Positions 38,650 through 42,778 are shown, counted from the stretch's first letter. The stretch is DNA of 64,000 bases from an uncultured Acidimicrobiia bacterium (GCA_963786955.1 CAWBAT010000004.1:160001-224000); one strand, 5' to 3'. Program-made: numbers and translations. Notes: generated by a model from the letters alone, not told the origin.

Positions 38650-39277
38650 TTGATATTGGAGACCATTCCCGTAGGCCCTTTACAGTGCAATTGCTATATT
38701 CTGGGTTGTGAGCAAACCCGGGAAGCTTTGCTGATTGATCCAGGCGAAGACGCCGATTTGATCTTGCCGGTCCTGGAAAAACATCAGCTCAAAGTGAAGT
38801 ACATCCTCACTACTCATGCCCACATTGATCATGTCGGCGATTTGGAAGCAGTCCGTTCTAAAACAGGAGCTGAAGCTCTATTGCATGAAAAAGATCTCTT
38901 GCTCTACGAAAATCTTCCGATACAAGCCGCCTGGTTAGGGGTCGAGACCCCGCCAACCATTAAGATCGATAACTTCATACACGATAAAGATCAGCTCCAC
39001 TTCGGCCGGCACACAGGAGAAATCCTCTTCACACCGGGCCATACCCAGGGCAGCGTTTGTTTATACCTTACCCGAACAAACGGGAAAGCTGTTCGCAGGA
39101 GATACCTTGTTCAAGCACAGCATCGGCCGGACAGATCTCTGGGGTGGCTCTTACGAATCCATTATTCAATCCATTCATGAAAAGCTGCTGACACTCGATG
39201 ACAGCACAGTCGTCTATCCAGGCCATGGGCCCACTACCACGATCGGTGAAGAAAAGAAACACAACCCCTTCTTATGA
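38650..39277 (+). CDS. MBL-fold metallo-hydrolase (glyoxalase II-like), frameshift near 39067
   Basis: THAHIDH, TPGHT; the shifted frame continues LFAGDTLF..IGRTDL..VYPGHGP..NPFL*. Confidence 0.85.
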
Positions 39278-39324
39278 AATTCATCTCCTCGATAGAATAA
39301 AAAGATTTCCTATATTTTTTGATT

Positions 39325-39648
39325 CTGACAGGCGTGAACGCCTGTCGCTGGAGTTTGGACATTTATGAAGCGGCAGGAGGCCGCTTCCTCCTTCGAGAGC
39401 CCCATCGGGGCGTTGGATTCTAGCCCAGGGCGCCGCCAGCGGCAGGAGCCGCTGCGGCCGCCCTGGGTCAGCGTTCTCACGAGTTCCTACCCTCTCCCCC
39501 AACACCCTTTCCGTGTTGGGGGAGAGGGCGAGGGTGAGGGGGTCAGAAGCTGTCGACGTCGAAGTCTCACGCTTCGTTCCGACAAACACTGCAACCACAA
39601 CGAAACGCATGATTCAGGATTTGGCAACGAATGCCCCCCACTCCCATC
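39325..39648. repeat. Cluster of REP-like palindromes left of the IS110
   Basis: GACAGGC/GCCTGTC, TAGCCCAGGGC..GCCCTGGG and CCCTCTCCCCC..GGGGGAGAGGG hairpins. Confidence 0.75.
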
Positions 39649-39656
39649 CTTATAGT

Positions 39657-40010
39657 CGGTACAACAGGGTTGCCCGAGGATGAGTATATGAATAGCCGTC
39701 GTAGCGTTTCTTTCTTTTTTGCCTCTTTTTTCTTTCTTTGTGGAAGCTGTGGATTTTGTGCAAAAGCCATGAAGGCCAACAGAACCATACCCCTCGTTGA
39801 GGGAATTGGGATTAAATGGAGGGGTTGTCACCCGCCATCCTCCCGTTACGAACAAACCACCCGATCGTGCGACGATCAGGGAGAGACTTTCGAACGGGAG
39901 GGGGCTGGAGCTGAAACGCATTCTCAGAGGCTGCCCCGAGAGGACTCCCCTATAAGGGTTGCGCGGGCCCCAGCTGGCGAGGTTCCTTCTCTTTATCCTA
40001 GAACGGGAGG
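39657..40010 (+). ncRNA. Putative IS110 bridge RNA (left non-coding end)
   Basis: Two stem/internal-loop modules with segments matching target (GGGAGAG) and donor (CTCAGAGG, CTATAAG). Confidence 0.7.
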
Positions 40011-40015
40011 AGATC

Positions 40016-41294
40016 ATGAGTTCTGATTCTGAAATTGCTGCCTTCATTGGTTTAGATTGGGCCGACCAACAACATGTCATTTGTCTGCGGGCGGCCGGCT
40101 CTGGTCAGGTCGAATCTCTAGTGGTGGACCAAAAACCGGAAAGCCTGCAAGCTTGGATCCAGCAATTGCGACTGCGATTTGGGGGCCGCCCGGTAGCCAT
40201 CATCCTGGAGCAATCGCGGGGCGCCTTGTTGTATGCCCTGATGGACGTGGACTTCTTGCGGCTCTATCCGAGTCAACCCTCTAACCTTGGCCAAGTTTCG
40301 CAAAGCCCTCTATCCCAGTGGCGCCAAGGATGATCCCACCGATGCCGCGCTCTTGCTGGAACTGCTGGAGAAGCATCGGGAGCGCCTCCGCGTTTGGGTT
40401 CCCGACGACCCCGACACCCGCTGCCTGCGCCTGCTCAGCGAAGCGCGACGCAAGCTGGTCAACCAGAAGACCGCTCTGACCAACGAGGTCACCAGCCTGT
40501 TGAAAGGCTATTTCCCTCAAGCCTTGTCCTGGGCGGGAGATCCCGACACCTTGCGGGCTTGCGATTTTCTGCAAAAGTGGTCCAGTCTGGATCAGCTGCG
40601 CCGGAGTTCCAGGACCACTCTGGAGAAATTTTACCGCCATCACGGTTGCCCCTCGGGCCGGTCGATCGACTCACTGCTGGAAGAAATTCGCTAGGCTCAA
40701 CCCCTGACGCGAGACCCTGCCGTCACCCGGGCCTCAGCCCTGATGGTGCAGGCCTTGATGCGCCAGGTTCGGGACCTGATCGAATCGATCTCCCAATTTA
40801 ACCAACAAATCAAAGAGCTGTTTGAAAAGCATCCCGACTACGATGTGTTCCACAGTTTCCCCGGGGCCGGGCCGGCTTTGGGCCCCCGCCTCCTGACTTT
40901 GTTCGGATCGGATCGGAACCGTTTTCACTTGGCCTGCGAAGTACAGCTCCTGTCGGGCATCGCCCCAGTCACCGAAAAAAGCGGCAAGTCCCATCGGGTC
41001 CATTGGCGGTGGGCTTGTCCGAAATTCTTGCGCCAAAGCGTCCAGGAATTCTCGGAACAGTCGATTCGCCGTTCCCTGTGGGCGCGGACCTGCTATGACT
41101 GCCTCCGCGCGGCCGGCAAGTCTCATCACGCGGCCCTGCGCGCCCTGGGCTACAAATGGCTTCGGATCATGTTCCGCTGTTGGAAGGAGCATACACCTTA
41201 CGACGAACAATATTACCTGGCTACCTTGCGGCATCGTGGGTCTCCCCTGGGAGAAGCATTGTCCCTCACAACCACGGAGTCCATTTGTGAATAA
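40016..41294 (+). pseudogene. IS110 DEDD recombinase, frameshift near 40270 and in-frame TAG at 40692
   Basis: IGLDWAD, IILEQS, KDDPTDA, GIAPVTEKSGKS. Confidence 0.88.
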
Positions 41295-41344
41295 ATTGTC
41301 ATTTTCCTGTGCAAATAATAGTTGACTTATCACCTCAGAGGTCT

Positions 41345-41564
41345 CTCCCCCCGAATCGCCGAAAGGCGAGCCATTCGGGGGGAGAGGAGATAATATTGGT
41401 TGAAATGCTGACCCAGGGCGGCGTGAGGAGCTCTTGCTCCTCGCTGGCCCTGGGCTAGAATTCTATCGCCCTTACAGGGCACTCAGGGGAAGCAGCGGCA
41501 TCCTGCCGCTGCACTTCTCGAAAAATTCCAATATCCAGAGACAGGCGTGGATGCCTGTCGCTAC
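41345..41564. repeat. Cluster of REP-like palindromes right of the IS110
   Basis: CTCCCCCCGAAT..ATTCGGGGGGAG; CCCAGGGCG..GCCCTGGGCTA inverted relative to 39397-39477. Confidence 0.75.
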
Positions 41565-41860
41565 TGAGGCTATCCATTTCTCGCCCTTAACGGGGCTTCA
41601 AGTGGAAGCTATTTTACTCTTGAGTGAGACGAGCTCTTGAAAGAATAAATAACGAAAATCGACGTCCATTGGTTGTCATACAAAATCACATTCGAACGGT
41701 GACAATCTGAAATCCCCTCCGCTGGAGGGGTGTAGGGGTGGGTTCGTCAATGATGAACTGATATTTGCGTTCAGTTGCGGCTAGTTTTTTGGTGAGGAGT
41801 CAAATTTTTTCCCCGTGCTCCTCGTGGTTAATTTTCCTTCAAGAAGTAGCCCCCAGCATG

Positions 41861-42778
41861 TTACAGGATTTCCTCAATCGCTTTCTGGATGACACTTTCA
41901 TCCTGGTAGTTGACAAAATGACTGCGGATGATCCCCTGTTTATCAACCAGGAATATTGTCGGGAAAAGCTGTACTCCGCCATAATTGGATTGGATTTCTG
42001 TCGTGAGATGAGCAACGGGGAAATTGACTTTGTGCCCTTCTAGGTAGGCTTTCCGATCGGAATCTTTGTAATCGAGTTCCAAGACATGATCCGCATTAAA
42101 TCCAACGACTGTGAAATCCCGATTTTGGAATCTTTTCTCCAAGGAAACCAGGTGCGGTGTAATTTGGGCACAGGGCGGACAGTTCGTAAACCAAAAATAG
42201 ATGAGATACGGCTTGCCTTTCAGTTCGCTGGAACTGATGGCACGCCCATCAAGCAACTGAGCGGTGAACGGGGGAGCAACTTTCCCTTCCCAGCCCGCGA
42301 TGCTCCGTTCGATGAGTTTGTTAAAACGGGGATCCGCCTGAATCTTTTCAATATTGACTCTCGTGATCTCTCCGCTCTTTGGATCCCGGGTGATGAACTT
42401 CGGGACCCGCGGATCGGATTCCAGTATCTTTAGAATCAAATCTGCTTCACCTTCCACTTTCAGATTGAACTGCTGCGAAAGCTCCATAAGCGTAGGAGGC
42501 CTCTTGGCGTTTTGGTAATACTGCGAAACAAAGATGGGAACTTTGAAGAAAATATTGTAAAGACGGTCAATCACCTTGCGTTCCGCGGGCGTGGTAAACA
42601 CTTCGTTATAAAGTTCGGAAACGATGACGGGTTTGCCGCTTTGGACGAGGCCTCTCAGTTGCGTCACGACTCGCGTTTCGACGTCAGGGCTGTCTTGAGG
42701 AAGACTCAGCATTGAGCAAGCGAGCAGGTAGAGAAAGACCATTGATGCTGGAAGTGATTTCAAGAAAAATGATTTCAT
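41861..42778 (-). CDS. Exported TlpA/redoxin family thiol-disulfide oxidoreductase with an extra N-terminal domain
   Basis: APPFT..LDG, FWFTNCPPC, FPTIFLVDKQG. Confidence 0.85.
   Translation of the reverse strand: MKSFFLKSLPASMVFLYLLACSMLSLPQDSPDVETRVVTQLRGLVQSGKPVIVSELYNEVFTTPAERKVIDRLYNIFFKVPIFVSQYYQNAKRPPTLMELSQQFNLKVEGEADLILKILESDPRVPKFITRDPKSGEITRVNIEKIQADPRFNKLIERSIAGWEGKVAPPFTAQLLDGRAISSSELKGKPYLIYFWFTNCPPCAQITPHLVSLEKRFQNRDFTVVGFNADHVLELDYKDSDRKAYLEGHKVNFPVAHLTTEIQSNYGGVQLFPTIFLVDKQGIIRSHFVNYQDESVIQKAIEEIL

Follow-up and report, generated by a model that had tools for sequence, protein, structure and literature searches.

We examined a stretch of 64,000 nucleotides (nt) from an uncultured Acidimicrobiia bacterium (GCA_963786955.1, CAWBAT010000004.1:160001-224000; hereafter the window), in which a 1692-base-pair (bp) insertion sequence of the IS110 group occupies positions 39651-41342 with a CT on each side (39649-50 and 41343-44). 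The element begins with TATAG at 39651, continues through a non-coding left end, a broken recombinase gene and a short right end, and finishes with GAGGT at 41342 (Table 1). An earlier note, drawn up from the sequence alone, had described it as an IS110 element with readable bridge-RNA guides directed at a family of palindromic repeats, and as a new bridge-recombinase specificity that could be repaired. Its observations are partly confirmed and its interpretation is partly supported. The window element is very probably a dead copy of an IS110-group insertion sequence that moves by bridge-RNA-guided recombination.

Boundaries, core and broken recombinase gene

The genome searched (G000, nine contigs) holds three copies that are 98-100% identical: the window copy, C3:348523-350224 and C4:865-2570 (minus strand). 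Aligned with each other, 3/3 have the same ends, the left one reading CT followed by TATAGTCGG and the right one CTCAGAGGT followed by CT, so that each copy is flanked by CT. An uninterrupted paralogue of the insertion site, at G000:C7:146612-146717, reads CCCATC-CT-CTCCCCC, which is the exact pre-insertion sequence; a second empty site, at C6:776140, matches the C4:865 copy, and both hold a single CT. The uninterrupted C7 reading confirms the boundaries, the 2-bp core and the target that the earlier note had placed within a palindrome, CCATC-CT-CTCCC. A related genome (G017) contains a ~90%-identical element of which only the ends were assembled, at contig ends, such that its guide loops are not readable. 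Its junctions, four left and two right, show in 6/6 cases the boundary of the G000 copies. The earlier note had made its reading depend on other copies having the same boundaries and targets, and besides these boundaries the right target is CT-CTCCC in 5/5 right junctions (three in G000, two in G017), an outcome in favour of that reading.

The three G000 targets are CCATC-CT-CTCCCC (window), TCACC-CT-CTCCCG and CCACC-CT-CTCCCC, each being the 5' foot of a CCCTCTCCC..GGGAGAGGG hairpin; in the window the hairpin is CCTCTCCCCCC..GGGGGGAGAGG (41345-41387). The left targets of the other insertions in G000 and G017 are CCACC, TCACC, CCACC, TCACC, CACCC and TCACC, the last four of which are the G017 left-junction flanks, and the two G017 right junctions read CT-CTCCCCC and then the hairpin arm. 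Counted over the genome, the 9-mer CCCTCTCCC occurs 159 times on both strands, against ~43 occurrences estimated by chance, with 54 hairpin arrangements among them.

The element has no terminal inverted repeats, shares its 2-bp CT core with the target, and has a non-coding left end of 365 nt against a right end of 48 nt. A longer left end is characteristic of the IS110 group and the order is reversed in the IS1111 group (PMC11208160, in excerpt). The word formed by the joined ends has 0 occurrences in the G000 genome, thus the assembly contains neither circles nor tandem copies.

The coding region would comprise 425 codons if read through and is now split into three open pieces. PF01548 is found on pieces 1 and 2 (E 4.6e-4 and 1.2e-14), piece 1 by itself scoring under the curated cut-off, and PF02371 on piece 3 (E 7.6e-9). 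NF033542 ('IS110 family RNA-guided transposase') matches pieces 2 and 3 and stays under its whole-protein cut-off because the gene is broken. The domain composition is therefore that of the IS110 family, a DEDD RuvC-like domain (PF01548) and a PF02371 domain with a catalytic Ser; the D, E, D and D residues of the window were identified by eye alone and IS621 residue numbers were taken from PMC11208158. Comparison with the other copies and with P0001, an intact metagenome protein of 425 amino acids (aa) with 94% identity across the C-terminal piece of 199 aa that served as query, shows that the two lesions reported by the earlier note are real: an extra G at 40270 shifts the frame past codon 85, and CAG has become TAG at 40692-94, a premature stop. 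A further change, Arg to Cys at 41100, is private to the window copy. The C3 copy has one 1-nt deletion and the C4:865 copy many lesions. Since all three copies are broken, the family is not autonomously active in G000 now.

Relatives with open frames are plentiful, the protein search having returned 2299 sequences at E<=1e-20 among 5746 candidates. The protein of relative L086 is 86% identical to P0001. Another relative, L005, is 62% identical, has an open frame of 428 codons and lies on the window's own contig (G000:C4, about 27.1-28.9 kb); phmmer aligns its C-terminal domain with the IS621 transposase 8wt6 (E 5e-8), SG standing opposite SG, and its SGKS motif is also present in the window. 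The element or near relatives were found in sediment, wetland and soil metagenomes among public runs. DNA contigs of two such runs (X1 and X2) have C at 40692, and the extra G is missing from one X1 contig; as X1 could be the very sample from which the window came, or could represent the C3 copy, this is not independent support. A HIP1 count, intended as a test for a cyanobacterial origin, showed no enrichment.

Conserved RNA structure of the left end

Joining the right end to the left end yields TTGACT (41322-27), a 17-nt spacer and TATAGT (39651-56), as the earlier note had stated. This putative junction promoter, a match by sequence, is present in 44/44 metagenome relatives with both ends located, the spacer being 17 nt in 41 and 18 nt in 3. 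The same type of junction promoter has been described for IS621 (PMC11208160, in excerpt). Downstream, the T-rich block at 39701-39765 shows 85-92% identity among IS110 relatives in related genomes, versus ~65% elsewhere.

For 42 related loci fetched from genome contigs, the region upstream of the start codon was aligned by MAFFT without a supplied structure; L004, with a disrupted target loop, and L055, with a deletion, were excluded. RNAalifold applied to this alignment (27 relatives) identified a long first basal stem with compensatory changes in 12/15 pairs, and no helix besides it. A five-helix structure was then written by hand, in which loop 1 has a basal stem and an apical hairpin, and loop 2 an apical hairpin above two basal helices. 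It has 85.6% of alignment cells paired, versus 75.8% for column shuffles (0/500 as high) and 35-46% after sliding of the 3' partners, with both-side changes in 25/37 pairs. Helix 1 has 93.4% of cells paired; the low score of helix 3 (63%) is due to MAFFT misaligning its 3' strand. In helix 4, CGAA/UUCG of 25-26 of the 27 relatives is CGCA/UGCG in the window, a compensatory change.

The first stem of the earlier note, 39839-52/39889-901 around GGGAGAG, is thus a real helix that reaches 39834/39905, and its second stem corresponds to a conserved loop closed by 39917-20/39960-63 and 39905-11/39967-73. Alignment and folding with homologous left ends, which the note had proposed as a check, gave a conserved RNA with two stem-loops, each bearing an internal loop, as expected of a bridge RNA. 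In L004 (G000:C8:261387-262356) the donor loop is kept and the target loop is disrupted.

The conserved second loop matches the element's own joined ends. It contains CTCAGAGG, in the same sense as the right terminus, and CTATA-AG, the reverse complement of CT-TATAG; the earlier note had placed both donor guides correctly and had described the donor, CTCAGAGGT-CT-TATAG, as we find it. Among relatives, the positions that read the core vary in concert in the right target guide and the right donor guide (AG, UG, AU, UU, UA, CA), the right-guide side being read by eye from the MAFFT alignment.

By analogy with the handshake guides conceived for IS621 (PMC11208158, in excerpt), AC at 39886-87, facing the donor GT, is likely a handshake guide, and GG at 39957-58 likely one for the last target bases CC. 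The first position of AC is an A opposite the donor T in 53/53 relatives, an invariant pair, and the first position of GG forms a Watson-Crick pair with the last left-target base in 64/77, mostly an invariant G-C; as these pairs hardly vary, the family lends them little support. In four relatives (L045, L034, L026, L027) the first core base differs among left junction, right junction and guides and the second agrees; L034, for instance, has junctions AG and TG and a right donor guide that implies CG. Such differences point to tolerance, or to resolution of heteroduplexes, at the first core position.

Target reading and the repeat hairpin

In order to compare loops with targets we used the longest word common to a loop and its own flank, with the flanks of relatives carrying different guides as control. 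Set 1 comprised the window and 26 genome loci; L004 and L055, whose target loops are disrupted, were omitted, as were two duplicates and any locus without an N-terminal match. Set 2 was independent and comprised 80 metagenome loci, of which 68 passed the pattern and 64 were parsed. For the 5' side of loop 1 against left target plus core, set 1 gave 5.84 (n=25) for cognate flanks versus 3.43 (n=601) for the control, and set 2 gave 6.94 versus 3.86, with words of at least 6 in 43/52 cognate and 114/2733 control comparisons. For the reverse complement of the 3' side against core plus right target, the values were 6.30 (n=23) versus 3.16 (n=541) in set 1 and 7.98 versus 3.63 in set 2, where a 6-mer or longer occurred in 52/53 and 13/2087 comparisons, respectively. 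Cross-controls, 5' loop against right target and 3' loop against left target, showed no signal. The guide/target covariation across insertions that the earlier note had wished to see is therefore present in both sets, the sequences of loop 1 tracking the element's own flanks.

The structure stands directly upstream of the start codon, with a ribosome-binding site, GGAGGAG, between 39975 and the ATG, and could for that reason be a cis-regulatory leader of the recombinase gene, controlling translation or stability, and no guide at all. We consider this exceedingly improbable: in ~90 independent relatives the two loops co-vary with outside sequences and with the element's own termini, which is unexpected of a leader.

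For the right target the guide is GGGAG-AG, which is CT-CTCCC in reverse complement, and the earlier note had placed it correctly. The family-wide matching locates the left target guide at CCACC-C in the 5' side of loop 1, where the final C reads the first core base. The C4:865 site is a perfect match to this guide, and the C3 site matches it over CACC-C. The same arrangement is seen in L089, where CGCCACC-C is followed by GATCG and the left flank is CGCCACC-CT, and L005 has guides of its own, UUGCC-CU for the left target CTGCC-CT and AGCCC-AG for the right target GGGCT.

The earlier note had instead taken CCAUCCU (39835-41), which begins just 5' of the first stem and overlaps it, as the left target guide. 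This word matches the window's own left target plus core, CCATC-CT, at 7/7 positions, would with a U.G wobble also fit the CCACC-CT sites of C4:865-2570 and G017, and for the window element alone beats the loop guide (common word of 7 versus 4). Its bases are nevertheless basal-stem columns 16-22 of the alignment, in the 5' strand that pairs with 39899-904, and are paired in the family consensus with compensatory changes. The stem strand is unrelated to the left target in relatives, with 3.72 versus 3.75 in set 1 (n=25), where only the window reaches at least 6, and 3.65 versus 3.78 in set 2, where 1/52 does. CAUCC is moreover conserved in the family as stem sequence despite quite different, unrelated targets, and from the genome count ~0.05 CCAYCCT words are expected by chance in the 365-nt left end. 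We thus rejected CCATCCT as the guide; that it reads the target after all is very unlikely.

In a further alternative, the recombinase would recognise the hairpin of a DNA repeat resembling repetitive extragenic palindromes (REPs) and so mainly set the target, RNA pairing being a second, weaker check, after the 'dual-match' logic proposed for ISPpu10 but with the hairpin on the side of the right target. In its favour, 3/3 G000 sites and both G017 right junctions are at the 5' foot of a hairpin. Of the 17 metagenome relatives that combine the element's right guide with a CTCTCCC flank, the exact downstream GGGAGAG arm is seen in 6 and a near-complementary, GGG[A/C]GAGG-like arm in about 15 (flanks read by eye); for ISPpu10, a target stem-loop was reported as an extra determinant (10.64898/2026.03.19.712850, in excerpt). 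The position of the hairpin relative to the core varies, however, from the foot in the window to in or near the loop in L105, L114, L126 and L141 (read by eye), and the loop sequences follow the flanks base by base under any hairpin geometry. Palindromic repeats are also abundant safe sites, hence the association may be a survivorship effect. On balance we regard hairpin recognition as the main determinant as unlikely, and prefer that the RNA guides set the site.

Following IS621, excision would circularise the element, right end to left end, and thereby make the promoter TTGACT-N17-TATAGT. This promoter would transcribe the left end, and the RNA would fold into the two stem-loops with an internal loop in each. 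The first loop would read the target and the second the element's own joined ends, by means of CTCAGAGG (39923-30) for the left donor and CTATA-AG (39950-56) for the right donor. The DEDD/Ser recombinase would swap strands at the CT core, the element landing at ..CCACC-CT-CTCCC.., the 5' foot of the CCCTCTCCC..GGGAGAGGG hairpins. Transcription, binding of the RNA by the protein and catalysis are all presumed by homology to IS621.

Several observations weigh against this mechanism. The window's own left target, CCATC, has one mismatch to the loop guide (T for C), leaving a longest common word of only 4; the empty C7 paralogue has the same T, so the mismatch predates insertion. The left guide reads the first core base only, with a conserved G, which opens the apical hairpin, at the position of the second base, and the C4:865-2570 copy has lost one C from its left-guide loop. 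In the donor loop, CU comes after the left guide, against T-CT in the donor, which leaves one position unpaired, and the apical hairpin contains a C.A mismatch at the place of GUCC/GGAC in L004 and L005. Single-sequence folds of 39651-40015 and 39800-39990 recover the first stem and not the donor loop, and do not beat shuffles (z -0.51 and -1.00). An Rfam scan of 39000-42000 at E<=1 gave chance-level microRNA matches only, hence no model in the scanned copy of Rfam recognises the RNA of this subfamily. Contigs from two soil RNA libraries span 39818-40318 and 39862-40205 in relatives that are 93-96% alike; they mark presence only and cannot show transcription, and the parts they leave uncovered are uninformative. 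Finally, as all G000 copies are pseudogenes, a present-day function of these copies cannot be assumed.

Table 1. Features of the element and its insertion site, in window coordinates
Feature	Position	Strand	Basis or remark
Repeat unit hit by the element, ~495 bp, multi-hairpin	left part 39348..39650, right part 41345-41538	.	blastn of flanks against the genome, 5 copies
CT core, left copy (target-site duplication)	39649..39650	+	single CT in empty paralogue C7; same in three copies
Left end, 365 nt, non-coding, putatively encoding the bridge RNA	39651..40015	+	TATAGT 39651-56 = -10 box of putative junction promoter
T-rich block ttcttttttgcctcttttttctttctttgtggaagctgtgg	39701..39765	+	best conserved part of left end; upstream of guide loops
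Target-binding loop, basal stem, 5' strand, bulged A 39848	39834..39852	+	RNAalifold, helix 1; includes CCATCCT 39835-41
Loop 1, 5' side of internal loop, CAAACCACCC	39853..39862	+	
Left target guide CCACC (39857-61) + C (39862), C reading first core base	39857..39862	+	family-wide loop-flank matching
Target-loop apical hairpin GATCGT-GCG-ACGATC	39863..39877	+	helix 2; both-side changes in 3/4 pairs
Loop 1, 3' side of internal loop	39878-88	+	
Right target guide GGGAG-AG, reverse complement of CT-CTCCC	39879..39885	+	5/5 right junctions; family matching
Candidate handshake guide AC	39886..39887	+	complementary to GT, last two donor bases before core (41341-42)
Target-binding loop, basal stem, 3' strand	39889..39905	+	RNAalifold, helix 1
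Donor-binding loop, basal stems, 5' strands: CTGGAGC 39905-11, CGCA 39917-20	39905..39920	+	outer helix read from sequence
Left donor guide CTCAGAGG	39923..39930	+	same sense as right-end terminus CTCAGAGG(T)-CT
Donor-loop apical hairpin GCCC-CGAGA-GGAC	39933..39945	+	helix 5
Right donor guide CTATA-AG (39950-56), then GG (39957-58)	39950..39958	+	reverse complement of CT-TATAG
Donor-binding loop, basal stems, 3' strands: TGCG 39960-63, GCCCCAG 39967-73	39960..39973	+	
IS110-family recombinase pseudogene, 425 codons if read through	40016..41294	+	PF01548 + PF02371; NF033542; tblastn with intact P0001
Right end, 48 nt; terminus CTCAGAGGT	41295..41342	+	TTGACT 41322-27 = putative -35 box
CT core, right copy	41343..41344	+	three-copy alignment, empty paralogue
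Remainder of target hairpin, CTCTCCCCCCGAATCGCC...GGCGAGCCATTCGGGGGGAGAGG	41345..41387	.	5' arm begins in left flank at 39648

Two other copies of the repeat unit carry inserts. The C7 copy (G000:C7:144763-148678, L166) has two other inserts of ~1.7 kb that encode DUF1670 (PF07900) proteins, and the C5 copy (G000:C5:181350-182351, L167) has a ~530-bp insert within the loop of the target hairpin. Several mobile elements seem to use the unit as a landing pad, and the DUF1670 genes look mobile. Among the relatives with other guides, L105, L114, L126, L141, L145 and the L043 group hit small palindromes with the core in or beside the hairpin loop and not at the foot, and L037 seemingly inserted in the opposite arm of its own palindrome (flanks of both read by eye). 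Upstream of the element, at 38650-39277, is an MBL-superfamily hydrolase gene (PF00753) that is seemingly split into overlapping frames (38650-39180 and 39107-39277); its protein scores under every curated NCBIfam cut-off and is for that reason treated as a generic hydrolase.

Relation to known bridge-RNA systems

The element resembles IS621 and the IS110 group in its DEDD plus Tnp-Ser recombinase, its CT core and a left end far longer than the right (365 versus 48 nt). As in IS621, a sigma-70-type promoter is predicted to be rebuilt at the circle junction, the RNA has a variable target loop and a conserved donor loop, left guides are in top-strand sense and right guides are its reverse complement, the handshake model accommodates the bases that follow the right guides on the 3' side, and targets are REP-like. 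It differs in several respects. The protein measures ~425 aa versus the 328-aa chain in 8wt6 and is alignable in the C-terminal domain only. The target loop starts ~185 nt into the left end, whereas the whole IS621 RNA measures ~177 nt from its start site, and the basal stem, of 17 bp, contains a conserved bulged A. Of the two core bases the left target guide reads just the first, whereas the 9-nt left guide of IS621 reads both, and the right target guide has 5+2 nt versus 2+2 in IS621.

Like ISPpu10, the element inserts into a family of palindromic intergenic repeats, and a stem-loop adjoins the target bases paired by the bridge RNA. The ISPpu10 stem-loop is a 5' extension pairing with the left target, whereas here core and right target constitute the hairpin's 5' arm, and the sequence of the right target guide is consequently that of the 3' arm. 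We therefore note, as a tentative and rather doubtful idea, that the bridge RNA of the 425-aa clade may follow the mirror image of the 'sequence plus structure' rule of ISPpu10. The RNA would then capture its target by replacing the 3' hairpin arm (GGGAGAGG) as the repeat breathes or extrudes. If true, this would make the opening of the hairpin part of site choice and would explain why the clade lands so consistently at hairpin feet and loops.

Family, RNA architecture and donor ends are the same in P0001, L086, L089 and L005, which all have open reading frames. GGGAGAG is found in the same loop in 22/64 parsed metagenome relatives, and 17 of these 22 have a CT-CTCCC right flank on record; L086, L087, L089 and 18 other parsed loci carry this guide, and several relatives have a ..CCACC-C left guide. 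Given these and the 94%-identical intact protein, the earlier note's proposal of a new, repairable specificity does not hold: neither the element nor its choice of target is new. Tobes and Pareja are said to have described REP-targeting IS110 elements in 2006. Left-end bridge RNAs of the IS110 group, junction promoters, covariation of loops and targets, and REP targets have all been published (PMC11208160 and PMC11208158, in excerpt), and the specificity of bridge RNAs is known to be programmable (PMC11208160, in excerpt). What appears mildly distinctive is the clade, with its ~425-aa proteins distant from IS621, its 17-bp stem with a bulged A, its left guide reading one core base and its hairpin-arm geometry. 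It may already be listed in the supplementary bridge-RNA tables of the published papers.

The value of the result is mainly one of housekeeping, bridge RNAs, junction promoters and REP targeting being in print and no new question being opened. A reading made without tools found three of the four bridge-RNA guides; locating the fourth takes comparison with relatives, since a stem can contain a perfect 7-mer match. The analysis puts on record a large clade of ~425-aa IS110 recombinases, found in sediment and soil and so far little described, with its RNA architecture and guide positions mapped, and many of its natural members with open frames are directly testable.

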